This document shows, piece after piece, positions 13,490 through 31,483 of a stretch of 32,000 bases of DNA. Position 1 is the first letter of the stretch; the number at the start of each line of letters is the position of its first letter. Location: positions 270,001 through 302,000 of the forward strand of contig JAXLZO010000001.1 in assembly GCA_046350815.1 (NCBI GenBank). Direction: 5' to 3'. Under the pieces are notes generated by a model. It searched no databases, was not told where the DNA came from, and worked only from the letters and a program-made list of their open reading frames with translations. Source of the stretch: Candidatus Saccharimonadota bacterium. GTDB taxonomy: Bacteria > Patescibacteriota > Gracilibacteria > BD1-5 > UBA2023. A program made the translations under genes and the position numbers.

Positions 13490-13565
13490 GCCACTTTAGC
13501 TCAGTTGGTAGAGCTCCTGTCTTGTAAACAGGTGGTCGTCGGTTCAAGTCCGACAAGTGGCTCCA
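13490..13565 (+). tRNA. tRNA-Thr (anticodon UGU), CCA encoded
   Basis: Cloverleaf folded by hand: acceptor gccactt/aagtggc, anticodon stem cctgt/acagg with loop cTTGTAa, T-loop ttcaagt. Confidence 0.9.
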
Positions 13566-13585
13566 TTTTTTTGTAGAAATCCTTC

Positions 13586-13670
13586 GGGTCGGTTCCAGAG
13601 CGGTCAAATGGGGCGGACTGTAAATCCGTTAGCTTTGCTTTCGCTGGTTCGAATCCAGCCCGGCCCACCA
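13586..13670 (+). tRNA. tRNA-Tyr (anticodon GUA), long variable arm, CCA encoded
   Basis: Acceptor gggtcgg/ccggccc (one G-U pair), anticodon loop cTGTAaa, T-arm gctgg-ttcgaat-ccagc. Confidence 0.88.
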
Positions 13671-13723
13671 TATGTTTCCCAAGTAATAGAAGATACATGC
13701 TACGATAGTTTCAAAACCAATTT

Positions 13724-13807
13724 GCCGGGATGGTGGAATTGGTAGACACGCGGGTCTTAGAAGCCCGTACCAGTGGTGTGAGGGTTCAAGTCCCTCTTCC
13801 GGCACCA
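13724..13807 (+). tRNA. tRNA-Leu (anticodon UAG), type II, CCA encoded
   Basis: Acceptor gccggga/ttccggc, D-loop gaattggtaga, anticodon loop cTTAGaa, long variable arm, T-arm gaggg-ttcaagt-ccctc. Confidence 0.86.
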
Positions 13808-14128: not shown

Positions 14129-15100
14129 TTAAGAAAGTATCACCCCATTGAGAATCAATTGAAGCAAAAGATAACTTCCCATAAGGAGGATGCAACCGAT
14201 AACAATATACATAAGGATGGCCTTTGCTTTCTTCACACCTTCTTCTTGTCCACTACTGACCGCGAGAAGATAACCAGCATAAATAATCAAGAGGACGATG
14301 GCAATTCAAAGAAAGCTGCTCACATATTCAAGGATTTTAACAAGAGTTCCGCTTAATTCACTCAATCTTCCAAGATTTAATTTAATCTCACTACCCGATA
14401 CATCCGGATTTGTCACATCTCCATAGAATACTCGGACCAATACCTTTGGTATTTGTAAAAGTAAAAATCCAATAATAGCTGCTGTGACCATTGATTTTGC
14501 TTGTTTGATTTTCTCATCATTCCCAAGTGCTGTTGTAAGTTTGAACGCAGCCCATGTGCCCATAAAGAGAAACGTAATCTGTCAAAATGTAAGTAAAAAG
14601 TTTGTCAAAGGCAAGAGGATGCCACGATTGATATCAAGAGCGAGACTTCCATTTACCGCGTTTGCATTGGTAAAAAACATCACAAGACTATAAGCAGTCT
14701 GCATAAGAAATATACCAAGACCAACACTCACAATTCCTGACTTGAGACGTTTAACTTCTTCTTCCGTCGATCCAGCACCAAGTAACTTGATGACCATAAA
14801 GAGGAGTACTACGGAAGCAAGAATGATAATGACATTTTTTACGCTCTTTACAATATTCCATCCGGCTTGTCGAGCTCAAGCAAGATTGGTCACCTCGCTA
14901 TCATAGACCAGTTGCCCTGACCCAATACCAAGAATTTTTTTGGTTTCTAAATTAGGATCTGAACCTCGAAGTACCCCTCCAACTCATGAATCTTTTGTAT
15001 CCACATTAAAATCACTGTAATTCGTAGTTACGGCAAATACAGATGTGCCAAATCCAAAAAAAGTAAGAAGAGTGAAAATGGTAAGAAGAATTTTTTTCAT
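14129..15100 (-). CDS. polytopic membrane protein made of three TrbC/VirB2-pilin-like hairpin repeats
   Basis: 323 aa, one frame across 14582-14797 and 14306-14563 plus TGA read-through. Signal peptide MKKILLTIFTLLTFFGFGTSVFA. Three units of TM-G-x-[ED]E-x2-K-x-[AL]K-x-TM: LLGAGSTEEEVKRLKSGIVSVGLGIF, LGNDEKIKQAKSMVTAAIIGFLLL, SSGQEEGVKKAKAILMYIVIGCILL. Confidence 0.68.
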
Positions 15101-15108
15101 ATACAAAA

Positions 15109-18100
15109 CTAAGATGATGTATTTGTTTGTCCAAGTCCAAGACGTGCCTCGATTTCCATATCAACATATTCTTTCTTGCGTCCGTAAGTTTTACGAGAAT
15201 ATTCACGTATGATTTTTGCTACCTCATCGTTGCGATAAGTACTATCCCAAAGGGTCTTAAGATCAAATGGACGGCTCGATGCATTGTCGATATTGAGCTT
15301 ACAGTACGTCGTAAAGTTGGCGATACCAATAATGTCTTGTTGTGAGAGTACTGGGGCATACTCCTTCTCAAGGTACTCTGCATCATCCGCACCCACCTTG
15401 AACGACATAATCGTACCAGCATTCCCGAATACTGCATCCTTGATAGATGGTTTACCACCCTTTCCATTCTTATCTCATGATCCTCCAATCTGAGCAATAA
15501 ACTGATGTGCCATAATAAGAGCGAGACGATATTTACGAGCTTCTGAGAGAATCTCACCAAATGTATCTGTTGCAAAGTTTTGAAACTCATCAACATAAAG
15601 AAAGAAATCCTTACGTTCGCTCTCAGGAATATTCGCACGGCTCATAGCAGCCATATTGATCTTCGAAACCATGATAAGACCAAGAAGCTGGGCATTAAGG
15701 TCACCAATCGTACCTTTTGAAAGATTTACCATGAGAACCTTTTGGTCATCCATAACACGACGAAAGTTGAACGCTGATTTCGTCTGACCAATGATATTAC
15801 GAATGATGGTATTAGTAATGAATGGACCAAATTTCGCTGAAAAATATGGAATCATTTCTTGCTTCTCACGATCACCAGTTGAAGCATATTCATGTTCCCA
15901 AAAGGCTTTTACAACAGGATTCTTTACCTTTGAAACCTTATACTTCATAAAGGCATCATCCACAAAGAGACGTGGCACATCGATGAGTGTTCCGCCCTCT
16001 TCATCATCCTCCATAAGCGTGAGGGCACCATTGCGGAAATAGTGTTGAATACGAGGACCGAATACCTCATCGCCAAATATCTTAATGAATATTGCTGTGG
16101 CATCGAGTGCTGCACGATCTTTTTCCATCGCTCTCAAGGTAGAGTCTTCACTGATGACCTCAAGGATATTCATGCCCATAGGTCGCTCCCAATCACCAGG
16201 ATCGAAGATAATCATATCTTTTGCGCGAGATTTCGGAGTATATGCGATAACATCTTCTACAAGATCACCATGTGGATCAATAACGCAGAGACCATCTCCA
16301 CACCAGAGATCCTGGCGCGCCATATATCCTACAAATACTGATTTACCTCAACCTGACTTCCCAATAATATAATGATGACGACCTCGATCTTTTTTGCTAA
16401 AGTAAATCGGCGTTTTTTGATTGCGGTATTCATTCCAACCCATAAGAGCTGCATCACGGTAGAGAGGGAATCCACCAAGAGTTCGATGCACATCTTGTGC
16501 AATAGGATTTTTTCCAGGATCTATCGGCTTACCAGTGTTTTCACCCTCTGATACAACTGGAACCACTTCACCTGTAATGAGTTGTAATGATCGATCAGCT
16601 GCTCGTACGAGATTCTTATTCTTATCTACAAGCAGGATAGAACCATCTTCCGTATAAATATTTCCTTTTTTATCACGTTTGTAATCACTCATGATAAGTG
16701 GATCCTTTGGTGTTCTGAGGTTTGGAGGTGGTGCAATCATCTTGTACGAAAGCCACTTGATAATTGGTGATAGGTTATACTTGATATCAGGGAAATGATA
16801 CATAGTTGAGAGTTCATCCGTCGAATACACACTCGTTGTCTGAATGAGTGAAAGAAGACGACATTGAAAAGCAAAATATCGAACTGGGACGAATACGACT
16901 TTGAAAAGATCTTCAAACTGATGATTATCAAGAGAATTGTTGTATTCATCACTAAAACTCGATGTTACTGCAACGAGACTCTGAAGTCCAACATCCGCGG
17001 ATTCTGGAGTGTCGGATGCAACCAGAAATCGTATACTCGCTCGGAAAGCAAGTTGGCTCGCAGCTTCACCTACACGTTTTTGAGCTTCTGTCTCGGCTTG
17101 GTTGAATATCTTGTATGAATCACCACTCGAAGCACCAGGAGCATTCGATCCGCTGGTATCATTTTGCACAAAAAGATCAACAAACCATGATATTGGCTTC
17201 AGAAAGACACTCACCATATGAAAAAAGAAATTTCCAGAGTACCAACTCGTATAGGTACCTTTTGCAATGAGTCCAGCTGCTTTTTTTGCCTGTTTATTCC
17301 ACCCTTTTCATACTGGTTTCATAGTGAGTTGCATAACGGCAATGTCGGTTTTTTTGAGTGATCCAAATGAATTGGTAAGACTTGAGAGTGGATCATCCTC
17401 AAAAACTTTATATGGCTTGATAGGGTAAACATTATCCTTGGATTTAAAGATCGACGACACACGGAGAGTATATCACTGTGGCTTGGTCTCTGGGTAGTCC
17501 TCATTCTTAATGATAGCAACTTCGGCGTCAGGATAGAGTGCTGTAATTTGCTGAGAAACCACTTTTACATCCTCTGCATACGTTACGACAAAAAAGTACA
17601 CTTCGCCGTGATCGTAGACAAGTTCCAGTGAAATTTTGGTACGATTGAGGATCCAATTGCGCATCGTGTCCCAGAATTGAATATTCCCGAGCTTATGAAT
17701 AGAATTATAAAACACCGTCATAGAAGATATTTTTTCCTTGAAATCCTTGCGTGTTTCGCGTTCTTTATCTAGTTTTGAATCCGCTCTCGGGAGCATAACA
17801 CGTATGTATACCAAATTTTTCGCATGAAATACCTCATACATCAAGCGAATAATATGAAGCATTAAAATGCTGACAACGATAATAGCAAGAAGTGAGATGA
17901 TAAACTGAAATATTTTTGAGAAAATATTCGTATCATCCGTTTGTGTCTGTTGTGCACACGCTTTTGAATTACCTGAATTACAGAGGGCTTTCGTTTCAAC
18001 GGTGGATGGTTTTCCTGCTGCTGGTGTTGCACGATTCGCATTATCGATCAGTGCGGCGGAAGCATTCGGAATATGAACCGTCACCGTCAGAATACAGAGC

Positions 18101-18171
18101 GAAGAAAGCACAAAAACTATCAATCACAACAAAGATAGAAGAGGGCGATTTGATCGAGAAAATGGGAACAT
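15109..18171 (-). CDS. membrane-anchored FtsK/HerA-superfamily ATPase, TraG/TraD/VirD4-like (paralog A, 1020 aa)
   Basis: Four track fragments share one frame through 5 TGA codons. Signal/TM N-terminus, second TM FQFIISLLAIIVVSILMLHII. Walker A GKSG-G-GKS (16339-16362), VIDPHGD, Walker B FFLYVDEFQNF, ARKYRLALIMAHQFIAQI. Stop is 8 nt before the TrbC-like gene. Confidence 0.8.
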
Positions 18172-18267
18172 AGTTGGTATATACCCCTCAAGAGTAACAC
18201 ACATTCTCTCAATCGTCCAAATACTCATCTTTGCAAGTCAAAAAAATTGAGTATTATAACGAAAAAC

Positions 18268-19797
18268 GTGATTATACTTCTTCATTCCGTGTGCCTCTCT
18301 GGGCTCGAAGCACACTTGGTAACTCTCGAAATCGACGTATCAAATGGCATGCCGGCTTTTAATGTTGTCTGACTCACTGATACAGCCATTCAAGAAAGCA
18401 AAGAACGAGTACGAGCAGCTATCAAGAATAGCGAGTATAAATTCCCACAAACTCGCATCACTGTGAATCTTGCACCAGCGGATCTTCGGAAAAAATGACC
18501 GCTCTATGATCTTCCAATTGCACTTGGAATTATTTCATGAGAATGTTGATTCGATGAGGCACTTTTAAAAGAATCACTCTTTGTTGGAGAATGCAGCCTC
18601 GACGGAAGTATTCGATGAGTTCATGGAATCCTGCCTGCAGCTCTTTTTGCACGATCGATCGGAAAAAAATACCTCTTTGTTCCGGAAGAAAATGCAAAAG
18701 AGGCATCCATGGTTCCTGATATATCTGTGATTGCCATATCAAATCTGAAACAAGCAGTATCCTATCTTACAAAAGAGAAAGCATTGGAATTTGTACTCCC
18801 AGTAAATATTTTTGAGATTATCAAGAAAGATAAAGAGAAAATGGATCGATACGATCTCTCACACATCATCGGACAGGATCATGCAAAACGTGCCCTCACC
18901 ATAGCTGCGGCCGGTGGACACAATATTTTACTCGAATGACCCCCTGGATCTGGCAAAACACTCCTTGCAAAATCATTTGAAACACTCCTTCCAGATCTCA
19001 ATTTTGATGAAATGATTGAAGTATCTAAGATCTATTCAGTCGCCGGAAAATTAGAAAAAGGATCATCCCTCGTGACAACTCGGCCGATGCGAACCATTCA
19101 CCACTCAGCGAGCACCGTATCAGTGATCGGTGGTGGCCGAGATTCTCGTCCGGGAGAAATATCCCTCGCTCACAAATGAGTGCTTTTCCTGGATGAATTC
19201 CTCGAATTTGACTCCAATCTCCTCGAAACTCTCAGGCAACCACTCGAAGATGGAGAAATCACCATCAATCGTATCAATGCGAGCTACACCTATCCAGCAA
19301 AATTTGTACTCATAGGAGCGATGAATCCTTGTCCATGTGGGTATCTCTGAGACCGAAGCAAACAATGTGTCTGTAGTCCAACAACCATTGAAAGATATCG
19401 TAAAAAACTCTCCTGACCTATTATGGATCGTATAGATCTCATGATTCGAGTGCCACGTGTCCTCGAGAGTGACCTACAAAGCAAGAGCGAGTGAAGAAAG
19501 ACATCTGAAGAATATCGTCGAGAAATCGACAAAGCACGAGAACGACAACTCAAACGATTTAGCGGTACAAAAAAGACATTCAACAGCGAAATGGAGAACA
19601 AAGATCTTGAAACAATACTCAATATCCACCCAGATGCCGAGGCATTCCTCCTATCGGCTGTGACTCGACTTGATCTCTCGACACGTGTCTATTATCGACT
19701 GAAGAAACTCTCTCGAACCATAGCTGATCTCGCAGATTCAGATCAGATACTCCTCCCTCACGTGGCTGAAGCACTCTCCTACCGAGTATCCAACTAA
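18268..19797 (+). CDS. comM: Mg-chelatase-like AAA+ protein ComM/YifB
   Basis: [65 protein letters not shown]; each -G- is TGA. Start is GTG at 18268, or TTG at 18247. Confidence 0.92.
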
Positions 19798-23077: not shown

Positions 23078-24034
23078 TACATTATGAGCTTTGTATATAA
23101 ATTGGCTAAACGGAGCCAGAGCATCATCCAGACGCTGACGCATGACAATATAACTATCTCGAATAAGCAAGAGATAAATATGAAGCTCATAAGCACTTTC
23201 AAAACTGAGATAGGAATCAAATGTTGAAGATATGGTTTGAGTAGCGAGGCTTGGAGCTGCAGCAATGCGGCTTTCAAGTATTTGTCGAGTACTCACGAGA
23301 TCATTCGTATTGCGAGCACCATCAAGGATAGCTCACTCTTGTTCTGCTACATTCTTGACGTAACGCGTATAAGCAAGATAACGACAAGTGAGATAGGATG
23401 ATGTATTGATAAGTCGTTCCGACATTACCTTTCGTTTGAGAGGCTCATTATTTGACTGTGTGCCAAGTGCCCGACATTTATAAAGAGTCGCATCTTCATT
23501 ATTCTTTTGTTTGAGGGGTGGGAGATAATCTTTGAGAGATGATTCTTGAAGAAATCGAAATCCGCCGTTTGACTTTGCAGCTTCGATATCATTGTATATT
23601 TGAGCTTTTGAATTCACAAGAGCGCAGGCAAAGAGATTGTTCAATACAGCATTATAGAGTTCGGTATTTGCTTCAAAGTAGTCGAGCATCTTCGGTGAGC
23701 TTACTGTCGGGGTATCTTCGCCAAGATCCCCACCCATATTTGGAACATTTCCTCCAAAATCACCAATCATTTTTCACACCGATTGAAGTGCTGCCTCATC
23801 GCCCATGGGAGCAAATTTGAGATCTTTTATCTTGAGAAAAGTATCAGTATCACCAGCTGACCAGGGGTTTGGGGCGCCACAAGTTGAGAGTCAGCTTGAG
23901 AGAGTTGAGTTATCACCCAAATATGTATCGTATATCGATTGATTCGTTGCACTCACCTGAGCAAAAACCTCGGAAGAAAATCCAAGGCACACAAAACCAA
24001 ATATCAAGAACGAACTAAAAATCTTTTGTAGCAT
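23060..24034 (-). CDS. secreted protein of unknown function (324 aa)
   Basis: Signal peptide MLQKIFSSFLIFGFVCLGFSSEVFA. Fragments 23333-23770 and 23060-23296 are joined by TGA. Its ATG overlaps the TAA of the upstream ATPase gene (TAATG). Confidence 0.6.
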
Positions 24035-26442
24035 TACCCGCCTATTCTATACGAAAGTTCTTTTTCGACAAATACTCGATCGCGTCCATATTTGAGACGA
24101 GAAAGTTCCGTGTAGATATGAGCATATTTTTTATCTCATTCTTCAAGATATGGATTGAGCGGAATAATCGAAAATGAAGGTGTTGGTTGACTATCAACAA
24201 GAGGTCGAATAACAGCTCGGAATTTATCCATATTCACGAGATCAAAGTCCGAGAAATTCGGCTTCATAATCTCTGATATTGCCTCTCCATCATCACTACC
24301 AATACGGTATGACATAACCGTACCAACGTTACCAAAAATAGCATCTTTAAGATTGAGGTTTGATTTTGTAAGTGAGTCTGATTTTTGAAGCTGTGCAATA
24401 TACTGATGTGCCACATTGAGAGAGAGTCGATACTTACGAGCTTCTGAGAGGATAGATTCGATTGATTCTGTAATATAGTTCTGAAACTCATCAATATAGA
24501 GAAAGAAATCACGTCGATCTTCCTTTGCTATAGACTGACGACGCATAGCCGCAATTTGCATCTTGGACACGAGTATGAGACCCAGCAGATTGGAATTAAA
24601 ATCACCGAGCAAACCTTTTGAAAGATTGATCAAGAGTATCTTTCCTGATTGCATACTATCATAAACATCGAATGAGCTGGTTGTTTGACCGATAATATTA
24701 CGCATCATTCGATTCGTAATGAATCCACCAAATTTTGCTTGAAAATATGGGATAATCTCGGCCTTTTCGCGGTCTCATTGTTTGGAATACACACCCTGCC
24801 ACCATTGTTTTACTGCTGGATCTTTGACAGTCTGACGCCGCGCCATCTGAAAATTATCATCCGTAAAGAGGCGTACTATGTCTGTGATTGCACCGCCTTC
24901 TGGATAGTCCATAAGCGTAATCGCACCATTTCGAAAATAATCCTGAATGCGAGGCCCAAATATCTCAGCACCAAAGAGTCGAATCATGATAGAAAGTGCA
25001 TCTTGTACCACCATTTGTTTTTCATCCTCAGTGCTGTATTCCAGCATATTCAGTCCCATCGGACGCTCAAGATCTGCGGGATTAAAATAAATCACATCTT
25101 CTGCGCGCTCTCTTGGGATAAATGGCAAGAGATCATGTGCAAAATCTCCATGCGGATCCATCACAGCGAGACCTTCTCCTGCACGGATATCCTGACGAGC
25201 CATGGAAGTTAATACTGTCGTTTTACCAGTACCAGTCTGCCCAATCACATAAAAATGACGAAAACGATCTTCTCTCTTGAGTCGAATTTCCCGACGAGTT
25301 CCACGATATTCGTTATGACCAATGAGAATTCCTTCTTTTGGCATATCTGGTGGTGCTCCAACAATCTTGAATCGTTGCCATTTGATCTCATGAACACGGT
25401 TATATTTGGAATGAGGGAAGTGATAGAGCGAAGCTATCTCCTCAAGACTCAAAATCGAGGGTGAGAGGAGGCTGCTCTGAGGAAAACGAAGAACAAACTT
25501 CTGAAAAAATCCTACCGATTCAATATATTTTGATGCCTTAAATCGATTGTACCCCGGAGATGCAAACTGACCAAAAGCTGCTTTGAGATGTTCAATCTCC
25601 GTCAGAACAAGCGAACGGTCATCACCCGTAACAAGGAGGCGTATAGCTACAGAATAACCAGATTTTTTGGCTTTTTCAGCAATATGTTCAGCGTCAGCGT
25701 TCTTATGATCGTCTTGGGGGGATTCTTTGTCTTGAGATGCATTTTCAGGCGACCAAAAAACAGAGAGAAGATGAGAGAGAAATCATGGATGATGCTTTCA
25801 TTTTTTCGAGAGTTTTTTCTCATAGCGTTGAGCGTTGTCTTGCCAAGTGTCTGGATAGGACTTCAGTACAATCTGAACGATCGCTCGTTCATGCTCTGCG
25901 AGTTTTGCGAGACTCGAGAGAATCGGATTCATAGGATCAGATTCTAGTTCCTTGTAGGATTTGATAGGGATAAAATAACTCTTATCAAGCTTAATATTCA
26001 CACCAACCGCGTGCGCATTAGATGAAAAAAGTTGTGGTTCTTCGATCTCCTCGAGGATAATATCACTATAGATAGCAGCAAGTTGTTTCTCTACGAATAC
26101 ACGATATTTCTTGTGCACAGCAATAACAAACGTGATCTCTCCTTCGCGTGCATGATATTCGAATGAAAGAAAATCACCCCGAAAAAATTGAGAGACAATA
26201 TTGCTTTTCTCAAACTGCTTAAAACTGGTGAGAAATTGCTCCATCAGACTAACGTGTTCTCGAAAATCTTTGATTGTGTCTTTGCGTTCATCAGCATCAC
26301 TATCCTTGCGGGTCATGAGCACTCGGATAAAAACAAGTTGTCTCGAATACCAAAGCTTCAGAAAAAATCTCAGAACAAAGAGAAAAATAAGAAATCAGAG
26401 AACGGCAAATGCAATGAGCGGACTCATTAAAGTAATATCCAT
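24034..26442 (-). CDS. membrane-anchored TraG/TraD/VirD4-like ATPase (paralog B, 802 aa)
   Basis: Fragments 25798-26322, 24775-25452 and 24136-24708 share one frame via TGA. N-terminal TM, Walker A GQTGTGKT, VMDPHGD, FFLYIDEFQNY, ARKYRLSLNVAHQYIAQL. Colinear with paralog A from the LV(Y/F)IRV segment to the C-terminus. Confidence 0.8.
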
Positions 26443-27026: not shown

Positions 27027-27054
27027 TTGTTATTTTTTGATGGTTTCATATACT
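27027..27054 (+). promoter_or_regulatory. promoter P+1: TTGTTA-16-TATACT (module 1 small-ORF transcript)
   Basis: The -10 hexamer lies inside the 44-nt repeat. The predicted +1 (about 27061) is the base of the CTCCCA/TGGGAG hairpin. Confidence 0.5.
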
Positions 27055-27085
27055 CTCGTCGCTCCCATTCCGTTGGGAGTGGGAG
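27042..27085 (+). repeat. 44-nt exact repeat, copy 1 (-10 box plus 5-prime hairpin)
   Basis: ggtttcatatactctcgtcgctcccattccgttgggagtgggag. Identical to 27360-27403. Confidence 0.95.
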
Positions 27086-27111
27086 GTTTATTTTGGTAAA
27101 CTTCTTACTGT

Positions 27112-27222
27112 ATGAAATTCTTTCGAGAATTTTGGATCAAGATGTGGTGTCTCAGTATTGAGATACAGCTTGATAAGAAGCGAAGAATGAAGGTCTATGA
27201 CGATAGTTCTGAGCAAAAATAA
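27112..27222 (+). CDS. small ORF 1 (36 aa) of the type-I-TA-like module; coding status unproven
   Basis: MKFFREFWIKMWCLSIEIQLDKKRRMKVYDDSSEQK. The ATG is embedded in direct repeat DRb, and TAA abuts terminator T1. Confidence 0.35.
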   Translation: MKFFREFWIKMWCLSIEIQLDKKRRMKVYDDSSEQK

Positions 27223-27297
27223 AAGACCCGCGTCAACGGGTCTTTTATTTTGGGAGGCTTATTTCCCTTCTTACAGTATGAGGCCTCCGAAGAGGTC
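27214..27297 (-). ncRNA. predicted antisense sRNA 1 (~84 nt)
   Basis: Own promoter (27304-27331). The 5-prime end folds as GACCUC-UUCG-GAGGCC. The body is complementary to the ORF1 leader and start codon. Ends at T1. Confidence 0.5.
27221..27251. terminator. bidirectional intrinsic terminator T1
   Basis: aaaagacccg-cgtcaa-cgggtctttt with T-runs on both strands. Confidence 0.8.
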
Positions 27298-27303
27298 AAT
27301 ACA

Positions 27304-27331
27304 AGTATAGCAGATGACTCTAGAAATGCAA
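27304..27331 (-). promoter_or_regulatory. promoter P-1: TTGCAT-16-TATACT (sRNA 1)
   Basis: Minus-strand hexamers at 27331-27326 and 27309-27304. Hexamers and spacing are identical in the second copy (27613-27640). Confidence 0.55.
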
Positions 27332-27344
27332 ATATTTTGGATTC

Positions 27345-27372
27345 TTGCTTTTGGAATTGGGTTTCATATACT
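27345..27372 (+). promoter_or_regulatory. promoter P+2: TTGCTT-16-TATACT (module 2 small-ORF transcript)
   Basis: Same geometry as P+1. The -10 box lies inside repeat copy 2. Confidence 0.5.
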
Positions 27373-27403
27373 CTCGTCGCTCCCATTCCGTTGGGAGTGG
27401 GAG
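27360..27403 (+). repeat. 44-nt exact repeat, copy 2
   Basis: Identical to 27042-27085, with a 318-nt period. Confidence 0.95.
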
Positions 27404-27428
27404 ATTTTTATCTCTTTACTGCGATTTT

Positions 27429-27533
27429 ATGAGGAATTTCCTCAAATATCTCACAGCTCTTCTGGGCTATGAGATTCATCGAGTGGGTGGAAGAGCTCGA
27501 AAGATGCTGATCCGCAAGCTCCGATGAAAATAA
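27429..27533 (+). CDS. small ORF 2 (34 aa) of the type-I-TA-like module; coding status unproven
   Basis: MRNFLKYLTALLGYEIHRVGGRARKMLIRKLR-G-K (one TGA). The ATG is 2 nt after DRb. TAA abuts T2. Confidence 0.35.
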
Positions 27534-27606
27534 TAAAACCCCCGGCAAGGGGTTTTATTATTTGGGAGATTTCTCTTCCTTACTGCGATTGGTCTCTTGC
27601 GAGATC
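27526..27606 (-). ncRNA. predicted antisense sRNA 2 (~81 nt)
   Basis: Promoter at 27613-27640. The 5-prime end folds as GAUCUC-GCAA-GAGACC. The body is complementary to the ORF2 leader. Ends at T2. Confidence 0.5.
27535..27563. terminator. bidirectional intrinsic terminator T2
   Basis: aaaacccc-cggcaa-ggggtttt with flanking T-runs on both strands. Confidence 0.8.
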
Positions 27607-27612
27607 AGAGTA

Positions 27613-27640
27613 AGTATAGCAGATGGCACAGGAAATGCAA
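27613..27640 (-). promoter_or_regulatory. promoter P-2: TTGCAT-16-TATACT (sRNA 2)
   Basis: Minus-strand hexamers at 27640-27635 and 27618-27613. Confidence 0.55.
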
Positions 27641-27653
27641 ATATTTTGAAATC

Positions 27654-27747
27654 TCCGACTCGCGATGACTATATCGCTCCCTGGACTGTTGAAACTTGTC
27701 CGACTCGCGATGACTATATCGCTCCCTGGACTGTTGAAACTTGTCCG
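27654..27747 (+). repeat. perfect 45-bp tandem duplication (2.1 copies)
   Basis: tccgactcgcgatgactatatcgctccctggactgttgaaacttg at 27654-27698 and 27699-27743, then tccg. Confidence 0.95.
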
Positions 27748-27898: not shown

Positions 27899-30800
27899 CT
27901 AGTAAGTACCAGCAGAGCGAGAGAATGAAGTAGAAGCTGGAAGACCAGTTCCGTTGTAAGACTTGATAGAAGTGATCGCTGAAGTAGCGTAGTCACCTTG
28001 CTCTTTGTCGAAGTAAGCAACATCATTAACTGAAGTGTTAATAGTGTTGTTATCACCAGTAGCAGTACCATCGAAGTCAGCAAGAATCGTAACAGTTTGA
28101 CCTGCGAGGATTTCAAGCTTTGTTGATTGTCCATTAACAGGAATAGCAAGACCATTTGTAGCACTTACAGCACCTGAAGAGATCATCTCAGATGTAGAAG
28201 CTGTTTCACCCTTATAGAGAGTTACAGTTCCAGTTGAAGAAGAAACGAAGAGATCTTTTACCATTACTGCGTCAGTACCATTGTTAGTAATAGTGAATTT
28301 CACCTTACCTGCACCAGCATCAGAGATAGAGATGCCAGCAGCAGCAACAACGAGCTTACCAGCAGTAATAAGATCAGCCTTAGTAAGAGTACCAGTTGAA
28401 GCAACACGTCAGCATCAGTAAGAACTATCAATTGAACCTTCAAGACGAGATCGCATTGATCTGCAAAACCATTTACATTTCCACCTTGAGCATCACGTCA
28501 CATCAACACCATTAGCATACACCAGCATTCAAGCTTAACATCTTAAGACCAGAATCACCAACACCAAGTTTTGCAATAGAAGCCTTAACAGAAAGCTCTG
28601 CATCAGTATTGCGAGCAACAATATATGAAGAATCAACGAAGTTGTTAAACTTAACGTTAATAGCAACTCCATTTGTTGTAAATAACTGTACCATAAGCAA
28701 CAACCTTACCAGCAGCATCTACGAGAGTAGGAGACTTGAATAAGACGAGCAAGCTGATTTATCAGCTTGCAGAACCACTCAGTGAACCACCTTAATTGAG
28801 CAAGAGAAAGATAGAGCTCCTTAACATAGAGAGATCATCATTTGTTGCACGAACACGAATTTACCAAGTTCAATAGAACATTTTGAGCATTACAAGAAGA
28901 TATCAGCAGCATCATCAGTAGAAACAGCAATATCAAGCTGCAGCATTTGATAGTGAGACCGTAGCCAGCAATAGTTGCATTTGAAACAACAACATTGTTA
29001 CCATTTACATCAGATACATTTGATCAGTCTTGCGAGTCAACAGTTGTAATCTTTCACCATTTGCAAATCGAGGAAGAGCAGTCTTGAGCTCGATAGTTGC
29101 AGCCTTGAAGACTTTTCTACCTTGAATGTAGAGAATGAGCAACAGTTCCAGTATCAGCATCTACCTACAGTAGAAGCTTGGCAACAGAAGCAACCTACGA
29201 GAGTACCATTGATGTAGAGAGCAACCGTGAAGATCCTTAAGTTTATCTGCAGTACCAGAAGCAGTTCAACTGAAGTTGCAGCAAATCGACTCAGAAGTAA
29301 CAGTAATGTCAGAAACATCATTGTTATTGAGAGTATACTTGAGGAAGAGAGATTCTTCGCACCACCTACTACTTTGAAGCAACTGGAGATTGTTTGAAAT
29401 AGTAACACCTGCACCCTTAACAGTTACCTTAATAGGAGAGAGATCCACTTGCATCAGTTCAACCTTACGATCTGAAGAAGTATAACGAATATCGTTACCT
29501 AATGCTGCATTACCAGTTGCAAGAGATACAGTCAGCAAGTTGGAATGAACCAGAAGCAGCATCAGCACGAACATCAGCAGTAACAGTGAAGTCACTTGTA
29601 CCAGCATCAACAACAAATGATTGCGTTGATAGTATAACTCAAGAGGTGACACCAGCTGTAAATTGAGCTTGAACCATCAACACTAATTGATTGACCAGCA
29701 ATATTTACACGAATACTTGTCTGCATCAAGTTTTGCAAGAGCACCTGTAGTAAGAAGGTTCAAATGAGAGTAAGATCACGAAGCTTAACACCTTCCTTAG
29801 CAGTGATAGTACCCTTAGCAAGAATTACATCATTCTGACCAGCAGCAACATCAACATTAGCAGTATTTCCAACGTAGTGAGAGAGAAAGAGAACCAGCCT
29901 CTACTTAATGAATAGAAGATTTTCTTGCATCAACGTTGTAGTTGAAGCTTGTAGCAGCACGGTATCCAGTAGCAACTTCCTCAGCAATTACATGTTCTCA
30001 TTCGATTATCAAAATGAGAATTGAAGAGACATCATTTGTCTTTATCAATACCAGTAATATCACCCTTAAGTTGGTAATTTCGAGATGAGTTTGTGTAAGC
30101 AATAGTGTCATTCAACACGAATGTAAATATTACGACCATCAACAACAACATCAGAAGAAACCTTAGCACCAGTTACCTTAGAGTAGATTGCAAGATTTGC
30201 AAGGTACTTAACATCGAGGTTTTTTTCGTTGTAGAAGAGTAACATTCTTAAGAAGAACATCACGGCTACCAGAAGTTTTACACGGAATTCACCGAGAATA
30301 ACATCCTTTTCACCAGCCTTAACATCTTTTGAGTAGGTGCACTTACAGATTCAAAATCTACCTTGAGTAGTAGTATAGTTTGTAGTAACAAGAGTATTTG
30401 ATACAAGAGGGAATGCTGCAGTAAGAGTAGAAGCAGTAGAACAATATCCTTAGCAGCTACGATTGCAAAATTGTGTTGTGCACCAGATACACCAGGAGAT
30501 CGAAGCTTAACAATAAGATCGAGGGTTCCAGTTGTACCAGCCATAATCTTCCAAGCTGGAGTGAATGAAAGAGTAACAGTTTCATCTGAGTTTACAGAAG
30601 CTTGTGTAGTAACACGCTTACCGTTGTACTCGAACCAAACTGAATCAATTCCATCACGTTGACCAAGACCACCACGCTTCATCTTGATAGACTTGAGAGT
30701 CACATCAGAAGATGCAGCAGCAAATGAGTATTTACCAGCCTTGATTGTACCAACCTTTGGAACATATTGCATTCCCATAGCGTCGTTGCTGATAGTAAGA

Positions 30801-31483
30801 CCACCAGCAGTAACAACACCAGTTGATGTAGTTCCAGTAGAAGTAGTAGGAGGAGTTGTAGTTCCAGTTCCGTTTGTAGGAGGAGTTGTAGGTTCTACAG
30901 AATCCATAACAACAGACGATACCTTAAATGCTTCACCACGAGTAGCGTTTGCATTAGGGCGGAAATACTCACCATCCTTGATCGCACCGATCTCAACACC
31001 AGCGTTGATATAACCAGCAAGATCACCGATTGATGCAATATCCTTGAAGCTTGATGCCTTGTCAGAAGACTCAACACCGTTTGCAGCAAGAAGCATCTTA
31101 ACCATTTCAGCACGAGTTACCTTGTCAGTAGGACGGAATTTGTCAGCGTTAGCATTGACAAAACCTTCTGCTGCTGCAGTTTCGATAGCTGAACAAAGAT
31201 CACCGAGAGAAGGACCAACATCAGAGAATACATCTCCAACACAGTCGTACATCTCTACACCACTGAGCTTGACTGCAATTTTTGCAACCTCAGCACGAGT
31301 GATATTGTCACCAAGACGGTAGCCAGCTTCAGTCTGAGAGTTGATAACTCCAGCCTTCGCAAGCATATCCGCATATGTGAGGAACTCGCTTGCAGCACTA
31401 ACAGATGCAGTAGCACCCATTGCAGATGCAGCAATAGCAAGAACACTCACTGTAGAAGTAACTTTCTTGAAAAGATTACTCAT
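27899..31483 (-). pseudogene. SLH-domain S-layer-like surface protein gene with a frameshift-dense central region
   Basis: Signal peptide MSNLFKKVTSTVSVLAIAASAMGATASVSA. Three SLH-type units (..FRPTDKVTRAEMVKMLL.., ..YFRPNANATRGEAFKV..). Thr/Pro linker, then Ig-like repeat sequence. The frame is intact from 31483 to about 30441 and from about 28330 to 27899 (same phase at both ends). In between, sensible peptide keeps switching among all three frames. Confidence 0.6.

Follow-up and report, generated by a model that had tools for sequence, protein, structure and literature searches.

The 32,000-nucleotide stretch analysed here (the window; contig JAXLZO010000001.1, positions 270,001 to 302,000) carries at 27027-27654 two tandem modules of one layout, each combining a small open reading frame (ORF) with a predicted antisense small RNA (sRNA) transcribed towards it. 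The modules are genuine, non-random and conserved, and it is very probable that they are cassettes in which an antisense RNA controls a small peptide. We favour, at a probability of about 0.6, the reading that they are true type I toxin-antitoxin (TA) pairs whose toxin would be rich in arginine and lysine and would lack a transmembrane segment. They belong to an undescribed family, and systems of this type have not been reported from this bacterial branch, the Candidate Phyla Radiation (CPR).

The anatomy of both modules is directly visible in the DNA, and every element listed in a previous reading made from the sequence alone (the sequence-only reading) was recovered. The parts follow one another in the order plus-strand promoter, hairpin at the predicted transcription start (+1), ORF of 34-36 codons, perfect bidirectional terminator, direct repeat of the leader and convergent minus-strand promoter; the RNA predicted from this last promoter begins with a tetraloop hairpin (Table 1). 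The plus promoters have the proposed form TTGnTn-16-TATACT in both modules, the −35 element of mRNA 2 being only 3/6 and too weak for the promoter scan. The minus promoters are present as well, and the −10 spacing places their +1 at 27297 (sRNA 1) and 27606 (sRNA 2). The terminators can act both ways because their 15-nucleotide arms include A- and T-runs; a scan counted 8 terminator-like sites in 1.8 kb, where 1.4 would be expected. Two repeat blocks, DR1 and DR2, lie in the leader and recur as DR1′ and DR2′ beyond the terminator with exactly the matches previously given; the DR1 mismatch of module 1 is T/C and gives a G-U pair, and the distance between DR1 and DR2 differs between the two copies. 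The promoter and leader segments (27042-27089 and 27360-27407) are 98% identical and the antisense-promoter blocks (27292-27345 and 27601-27654) 80% identical. Each of the conserved motifs, the 24-nucleotide hairpin motif among them, has exactly two occurrences in the 32 kb, where 0.00 would be expected, and a covariance model scan of the window detected no copies beyond the two.

The evidence for pairing between the two RNAs comes from comparison across the family. DR2, the block of 11-16 nucleotides immediately 5′ of the AUG, has its own sequence in almost every module, and its copy always recurs beyond the terminator of its own module, abutting the minus-strand hairpin (16/16 specificity classes). 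These classes are the modules left after collapsing related copies into non-redundant DR2 sequences, and the best ungapped matches were scored for all combinations of mRNA and downstream repeat. The cognate partner took the top rank in all 16 classes (mean score 11.6 versus 4.8), and the observed sum of matches was reached by none of 100,000 permutations. Within the ORF groups, DR2 retains 34-45% identity, as compared with 73-91% for the ORF and 77-86% for the promoter and leader. The low identity of DR2 and its maintained matching therefore show that it is fast-evolving but changes in step with its partner. At the sequence level, the matching of the repeats is covariation for mRNA/antisense-RNA pairing, and the earlier proposal that the repeats correspond to sRNA-mRNA complementarity matched within each module holds for 16 repeat sequences. 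Mismatches in the repeats were too few for an excess of G-U-compatible ones to be assessed, and this idea was dropped.

Energy calculations are consistent with this specificity. With RNAduplex, cognate pairs reached about −38 kcal/mol and non-cognate pairs about −25 kcal/mol on average, an advantage of around 12. The cofolding check suggested in the sequence-only reading, performed with the full-length window RNAs, gave gains of −27.9 and −27.1 kcal/mol for the cognate pairs versus −12.7 and −7.0 kcal/mol for the crossed pairs. Furthermore, accessibility in the predicted RNAs is highest in DR2 for the mRNA and in nucleotides 17-30 for the sRNA: the unpaired fraction is 0.55 in DR2, compared with 0.21 in the 5′ hairpin and 0.18 in the terminator, and it amounts to 0.69 in the sRNA segment; for DR2 of module 2 the ensemble gives 82% unpaired. 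Only in L018:608-265 and L037:4018-3673 does DR2 match the sRNA of another module and not that of its own. Both carry a 45-nucleotide insertion in the ORF, which is in frame and leaves the ORF open in the first and is followed by loss of the frame in the second.

The antisense RNA also shows covariation within its own structure. Among the 18 aligned sRNAs, pair 3:14 of the 5′ hairpin, suggested to covary from the two window copies, occurs as U-A (10 sRNAs) or C-G (8) and is broken in none. The loops are exclusively UUCG, GCAA, GUAA or GAAA and belong to the UNCG/GNRA tetraloop class on the minus strand only. A covariance model scored 72-83 bits on the predicted strand versus 35-41 on the opposite strand; because this model was built on the predicted strand, it is the tetraloop argument that constitutes independent evidence for the strand. 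The terminator stem contains five pairs with compensatory changes in the family, while the hairpins CUC-GNRA-GAG and CUCCCA/UGGGAG are invariant in sequence rather than covarying.

The predicted mRNAs are exceptionally folded relative to shuffled sequences (z = −7.2 for mRNA 1 and −7.6 for mRNA 2). The hairpin previously noted at +1 is present, with a longer stem than the 7 bp (−11.7 kcal/mol) first described: the minimum-energy form, CUCCCAUUCC-GUUG-GGAGUGGGAG, has 10 bp (−19.1 kcal/mol) and starts at +2, so that the 5′ end is predicted to be sequestered. Variation in this stem is limited to wobble changes among 11 B-type mRNAs (types A and B are named after the two window ORFs). The U and G of the AUG lie within a further conserved hairpin, UGAGGAAUUUCCUCA, which shows one compensatory change. 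A Shine-Dalgarno (SD) core (GGAG, GAGG or AGGA, 3-12 nucleotides before the first ATG) was found in only 1 of the 24 long genes of the window, and the upstream regions are A/T-rich; the organism thus seems to start translation largely without SD pairing. GGGAG lies 23-27 nucleotides from the AUG and is probably not an SD site, and the idea that it is a sequestered SD was dropped on these two grounds.

Taken together, these features suggest the following mechanism. A sigma-70-type promoter would give a tightly folded mRNA of about 190 nucleotides for a cationic amphipathic peptide of 31-36 residues, and the convergent promoter would give an antisense RNA of about 80 nucleotides, both transcripts ending at one bidirectional terminator. 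The single strand that follows the 5′ tetraloop hairpin of the sRNA would pair with DR2, the accessible A/U-rich linker at or over the AUG, and pairing would then spread to the GGGAG-containing DR1. There the sRNA CUCCCA would take the second UGGGAG, and the 5′ CUCCCA of the mRNA would re-pair with the first copy. DR1 could open because the 5′ CUCCCA can move from the second UGGGAG to the first, so that with this duplicated motif the mRNA would retain a protective 5′ hairpin in both states. The terminator hairpins, which are fully complementary, would provide a third contact. The resulting duplex would cover the only unstructured landing site of the ribosome and block translation, and DR2 would act as a module-specific address that keeps paralogous cassettes orthogonal. 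It is from the sequence that we infer the transcripts themselves, repression through blocked translation, the toggling of the hairpin and the toxicity.

The family was delineated by scanning 185,579 species genomes and metagenomes for the exact leader pattern GCTCCCA-N6-TGGGAGTGGGAG, followed by an nhmmer profile. The species genomes contained one true relative (L010, CAYSEP010000079.1), about 20 metagenome contigs carried modules according to the leader pattern, and the profile added further copies whose leaders deviate from it. The total is 21 distinct full modules and one antisense-only unit, all on contigs in which UGA encodes glycine (code 25). Conservation is observed directly: the order of parts is identical in 21/21 modules. 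Viral contigs gave 0 matches to two leader patterns and the ORF B profile, and blastn against phage and plasmid collections gave no match.

Chance or contaminant matches to the pattern made up 5 of 6 in the genome scan and 9 of 28 in the metagenome scan; they correspond to WEWE-coding stretches and to one recurrent sequence. The latter, a GC-rich sequence that matched the leader pattern by chance, occurs identically in L005, L007 and L009, three metagenome-assembled genomes (MAGs) from unrelated phyla (Paceibacterota, Proteiniphilum, Coriobacteriia), and in the metagenome contigs L011 and L024, and is probably a shared contaminant or mobile sequence.

Copy number and composition vary within the family. 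Relatives of 80-90% identity carry the array at the same syntenic site, with 1-5 copies in variable order and content: A-B in the window, B-A in L036, B only in L029, A-B with a further A in L014, and A-B-A followed by two insertion-bearing B copies in L018, where the contig end truncates the last copy. Members that are less closely related occupy other, unrelated positions in the chromosome; their neighbours include a gene with a UvrA-like N-terminus and an IlvE-like gene (assigned by eye, no family search). The antisense-only unit (L012 616-722, equal to L013 7657-7763 and L020 8611-8717) is located between two complete modules and contains the terminator, DR1′/DR2′, the sRNA hairpin and the minus promoter without the ORF half. 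It is the sole incomplete unit that is not cut by a contig end, and no orphan ORF unit was found. The variable arrays, the sRNA-only unit and the loss of cognate matching only in ORF-disrupted copies make the population behaviour TA-like, and the last two are indirect hints of a toxic peptide neutralised by its sRNA. Two independent short-read contigs of the same organism (L001 and L002) end at 27071, inside the duplicated 44-nucleotide leader, and repeat-induced breaks of this kind will hide arrays in most MAGs.

Those breaks, the variation in copy number and order among relatives and the dispersed 45-nucleotide repeat that accompanies the arrays could all be expected if the locus were a remnant of a repeat or mobile element, or an assembly artefact, with the repeats as target-site duplications or recombination scars. 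This explanation is hardly credible. The repeats are situated inside the conserved module, between the leader hairpin on one side and the sRNA hairpin and promoter on the other, and not at the ends of an element; terminal inverted repeats are absent, and the mobile-element reading with target-site duplications was rejected for these reasons. Moreover, tandem arrays were recovered in independent assemblies, 16 independent repeat sequences stay matched in spite of the different DR1-DR2 spacing of the two window copies, and the tetraloop and stem covariation are strand-specific.

The 45-nucleotide sequence occurs in the window as a perfect tandem repeat of two copies at 27654-27743, directly after module 2. 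Its relatives are dispersed in related contigs, often flanking module arrays, and are found inside ORF B in L018 (87-131 and 442-486) and L037 (3851-3895). A small inverted repeat (GCGAC..GTCGC) lies within it, and it resembles a mini-element of the repetitive extragenic palindrome (REP) or miniature inverted-repeat transposable element (MITE) kind.

The peptides provide a second line of evidence. Across the family the ORFs encode 31-36 residues, below the 60 that bound the small proteins of type I TA systems. Type B is represented by 11 distinct sequences with the consensus MRNFLRYLxALLGYEIxxxRVxGRxRKKLLRxLRK, and in its long subgroup 27 of 35 third codon positions vary, versus 18 first and 12 second positions. 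The pN/pS ratio of ORF B is 0.36 in frame and 0.89 and 1.30 off frame. The three-periodic variation and the low in-frame ratio therefore identify type B as a real coding gene under purifying selection. The sequence of type A (MKFFREFWIKMWCLSIEIRLDHKRRIKRRGR) is conserved. Of the 21 modules, 18 have an intact ORF, and about 19 are open if the in-frame insertion of L018:608-265 is counted; the losses are the frameshifted L037:4018-3673 and the ORF A of L038. In the window, the two ORFs of 34-36 codons described before are both present, with the tail of ORF A frameshifted, and ORF B reaches 34 residues only when the UGA at 27525 is read as glycine.

These results bear on the possibility that the plus transcripts are non-coding structured RNAs carrying incidental ORFs, and that the sense/antisense pair regulates something else. 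The exceptional folding of the mRNAs, the lack of frame-specific constraint on ORF A, the different C-terminal frame of its window copy and the lack of a properly spaced SD would fit such RNAs, the last of these carrying no weight against coding because the genome hardly uses SD sequences. We nevertheless consider them very unlikely, since the frame-specific constraint on ORF B, the ORFs kept intact in most modules and the position of the antisense target exactly on the start codon region all count against them.

As predicted, the peptides are amphipathic, basic and not transmembrane. Their net charge is +8/+9 and their helical moment 0.69-0.73; they are rich in aromatic residues and arginine, their longest apolar run is 6-8 residues, and they contain no transmembrane segment, hydrophobic stretch or signal peptide. 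AlphaFold2 modeled ORF B alone as one long helix (pLDDT 83.5), which is uninformative for function. Searches of Pfam and NCBIfam with five peptides at E ≤ 10 gave no match, including none to Fst; phmmer with ORF B against 1.84 billion representatives returned 0 matches, and neither window peptide is on record in protein collections by exact-sequence look-up. The caution expressed earlier about toxin function was thus apt. The statement that the two peptides are unrelated is more doubtful: alignment of the type A and type B profiles with hhalign detected no similarity, but by eye both types have '[YI]EI' in frame at the centre and finish with 'R-UGA-K/R-stop', and they may be distant homologues.

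Several observations weigh against a type I TA system. Nearly all type I toxins known so far have a hydrophobic helix, which is absent from the peptides; their maximal Kyte-Doolittle hydrophobicity over 15 residues (KD(15)) is 0.5-1.1 versus 1.8-3.2 in the reference toxins. For type A, pN/pS is 0.61 in all frames, variation being too low for a frame test; the window copy has lost one nucleotide relative to six relatives, which replaces the basic tail RRGR by the acidic VYDDSSEQK, and the stop codon is absent from ORF A of L038. The mRNA is so closed, with the AUG in a conserved hairpin, that an antisense repressor might seem redundant. Finally, the family is narrow under the exact leader pattern, and most members come from one assembly set.

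The composition of the peptides also leaves room for the same sense/antisense cassette to encode a tightly gated small protein that is not a toxin directed at its own cell. Examples would be a cationic, antimicrobial-peptide-like effector used by an epibiont against its host cell, or an arginine-rich RNA-binding peptide acting on the invariant hairpins of the module. The high positive charge, the aromatic and arginine content and the lack of a transmembrane segment are compatible with both. The first example is in keeping with the location of the window array, which has genes of a type IV secretion system (T4SS) on one side and a gene for an S-layer-homology (SLH) surface protein on the other, and the second with the invariance of CUC-GNRA-GAG and CUCCCA/UGGGAG, as expected of a binding site. 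However, other members lie at unrelated sites (the UvrA-like and IlvE-like neighbours mentioned above), the peptides have no signal peptide, and addiction-type modules account better for an sRNA unit that lacks its ORF, for paralogues arranged in tandem and for pairing that has decayed where the ORF is disrupted. This alternative deserves attention, although we regard it as unlikely, and the type I TA pair remains the reading that we prefer.

Multiple paralogous cassettes per genome, some of them in tandem as here, are characteristic of Ibs/Sib and Ldr/Rdl of E. coli and AapA/IsoA of Helicobacter. The family resembles these systems in that each sRNA is specific to its own mRNA through variable recognition sequences and that the toxin mRNAs fold strongly and are inert for translation, features that are predicted here; AapA1 is, in addition, a cationic peptide like those of the family. 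Their sRNAs lie opposite the toxin gene or its 5′ untranslated region, whereas in the family they are convergent across a shared terminator and use direct repeats, and their toxins are membrane peptides, unlike those encoded here.

The wiring matches that of par from Enterococcus faecalis pAD1 and its chromosomal homologues, in which the promoters are convergent, the terminator is bidirectional, the repeats DRa and DRb span the initiation region and RNA I is structured in its 5′ part (PMC7472228). The par-like arrangement put forward in the sequence-only reading is borne out as a sequence-level prediction. Both systems have convergent promoters with one shared bidirectional intrinsic terminator (predicted here, with the layout in 21 modules), two direct DNA repeats that are transcribed in opposite directions and thereby become complementary at the translation-initiation region, folding of the toxin mRNA on itself at its very 5′ end (predicted here), and similar dimensions (a peptide of about 33 residues, an mRNA of about 190-230 nucleotides and a short sRNA). 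A U-turn (YUNR) as in par was seen by eye in one of the two terminator loops of the window modules. In contrast to Fst, the family peptides lack a hydrophobic transmembrane helix, the conserved Trp and the PXXXG signature, and they carry a net charge of +8/+9 where the Fst tail is acidic or of mixed charge. The family further differs from par in its sRNA of about 80 nucleotides with a 5′ tetraloop hairpin, in the hypervariability of the proximal repeat between paralogues, and in its host, a code-25 CPR bacterium that hardly uses SD sequences. Neither RNA resembles the par RNAs in sequence or in Rfam: Rfam 15 gave no match at the gathering score, and only chance matches driven by the terminator (E ≥ 0.15) when relaxed to E ≤ 10. 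Judged by sequence, the family is par-like in wiring and does not belong to the Fst/Ldr family.

The coordinates of the features are collected in Table 1.

Table 1. Features of the two modules and of their surroundings in the window
Feature	Position	Strand	Basis
tRNA-Thr(TGT), tRNA-Tyr(GTA), tRNA-Leu(TAG) cluster	13490-13807		
T4SS_pilin protein	14129-15106	-	
Two paralogous DUF8128/VirD4-like ATPases, 1113 and 802 aa	within 14129-18450 and 24034-26442	-	
Promoter of mRNA 1, TTGTTA-16-TATACT	27027..27054	+	promoter scan; position kept across family
Predicted mRNA 1, ~194 nt, +1 (G27061) to terminator U-tract	27061..27254	+	+1 inferred from -10 spacing
5′ hairpin of mRNA 1, 10-bp stem CUCCCAUUCC-GUUG-GGAGUGGGAG burying both GGGAG motifs	27062..27085	+	folding
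DR1 of module 1, mRNA leader, TGGGAGGTTTATTT	27080..27093	+	13/14 identical to 27251-27264
DR2 of module 1, hypervariable 'address' over AUG	27101..27115	+	14/15 identical to 27267-27281
ORF A, 36 aa, MKFFREFWIKMWCLSIEIQLDKKRRMKVYDDSSEQK, tail frameshifted relative to family	27112..27222	+	ORF list, family alignment
Bidirectional intrinsic terminator 1	27216..27251	both	perfect 15-nt arms; compensatory changes
DR1′ + DR2′ of module 1, predicted target-recognition region of antisense sRNA 1	27251..27281	-	repeat comparison
Predicted antisense sRNA 1, ~85 nt; 5′ hairpin GACCUC-UUCG-GAGGCC at 27282-27297	27213..27297	-	covariance model 80.6 bits
Promoter of sRNA 1, TTTGCA-17-TATACT, TG extended -10	27304..27332	-	promoter scan
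Promoter of mRNA 2, TTGCTT-16-TATACT	27345..27372	+	read from sequence; -10 and leader as in module 1
Predicted mRNA 2, ~188 nt, +1 at G27379	27379..27566	+	+1 from -10 spacing
5′ hairpin of mRNA 2, 10-bp stem as in mRNA 1	27380..27403	+	folding
DR1 of module 2	27398..27407	+	10/10 identical to 27563-27572
DR2 of module 2, ending 2 nt 5′ of AUG	27416..27426	+	11/11 identical to 27580-27590
ORF B, 34 aa, MRNFLKYLTALLGYEIHRVGGRARKMLIRKLR-G(UGA)-K	27429..27533	+	ORF list; purifying selection in family
Bidirectional intrinsic terminator 2	27528..27563	both	perfect 15-nt arms
DR1′ + DR2′ of module 2, predicted recognition region of sRNA 2	27563..27590	-	repeat comparison
Predicted antisense sRNA 2, ~81 nt; 5′ hairpin GAUCUC-GCAA-GAGACC at 27591-27606	27526..27606	-	covariance model 81.6 bits
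Promoter of sRNA 2, TTTGCA-17-TATACT, TG extended -10	27613..27641	-	promoter scan
SLH-domain surface-protein gene	27902-31483	-	L013 ortholog is a single 1179-aa ORF

The UGA-recoded setting assumed before was confirmed. Long ORFs appear in the window only when TGA is read through, and in comparison with orthologous contigs of about 82% identity, 24 of the 41 substitutions of in-frame TGA were to GGN and none was to TGG; the genome therefore uses code 25 (UGA = Gly), as in Gracilibacteria/Absconditabacteria. The genome relative L010 is labelled Candidatus Peribacteria, yet ORFs that look real, among them one resembling a HAD hydrolase by eye, contain TGA in frame at positions where Gly fits; this organism probably uses code 25 as well, and its label may be a misclassification. 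The array is flanked by T4SS genes on one side and by the SLH surface-protein gene on the other, the neighbours comprising a T4SS pilin, the two DUF8128/VirD4-like ATPases, a small secreted protein and the SLH-domain protein. Along the SLH gene the match to the L013 ortholog shifts frame (−2, −1, −2) and its middle is only 33% identical, which could reflect frameshifts, a hypervariable middle or an assembly error.

Type I systems were stated in 2025 to be known only from Proteobacteria, Firmicutes and Tenericutes (PMC12390103). The candidate msoT1/msoA1 of Microcystis aeruginosa likewise lies outside these three phyla; its sequences and layout are unrelated to the family, and its toxicity data come from E. 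coli, whereas the family has comparative evidence only, but with much stronger pairing covariation (PMC12390103). In the literature collection searched, we found no paper that joins type I TA systems with the Candidate Phyla Radiation. What is new here is the peptide type and the lineage, the par-like wiring being already known.

The distribution of type I TA systems is regarded as phylogenetically narrow (three phyla and one cyanobacterial candidate, PMC12390103), and this narrowness is suspected to be an artefact of detection. The present family was spotted from its architecture alone, in a CPR lineage with minimal genomes and UGA recoded to Gly, where small RNA regulators have hardly been described. 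It offers unusually clean natural compensatory evidence for an RNA-RNA interaction, and its 16 natural address variants form a ready orthogonality set for the evolution of antisense specificity. Should they prove toxic, the peptides would extend the known toxins by a type that is arginine-rich and not membrane-bound. A bolder proposal, which we offer tentatively and consider fairly unlikely, is that one RNA scaffold (promoters, 5′ toggle hairpin, sRNA body and terminator) carries interchangeable basic non-membrane peptides (A, B and the L010 type) that would represent either a new class of type I toxin with the ribosome or nucleic acids as its target, or a gated weapon that an epibiotic CPR bacterium turns on its host; thanks to the hypervariable address of 11-16 nucleotides, a genome of about 1 Mb could then accommodate many orthogonal copies.

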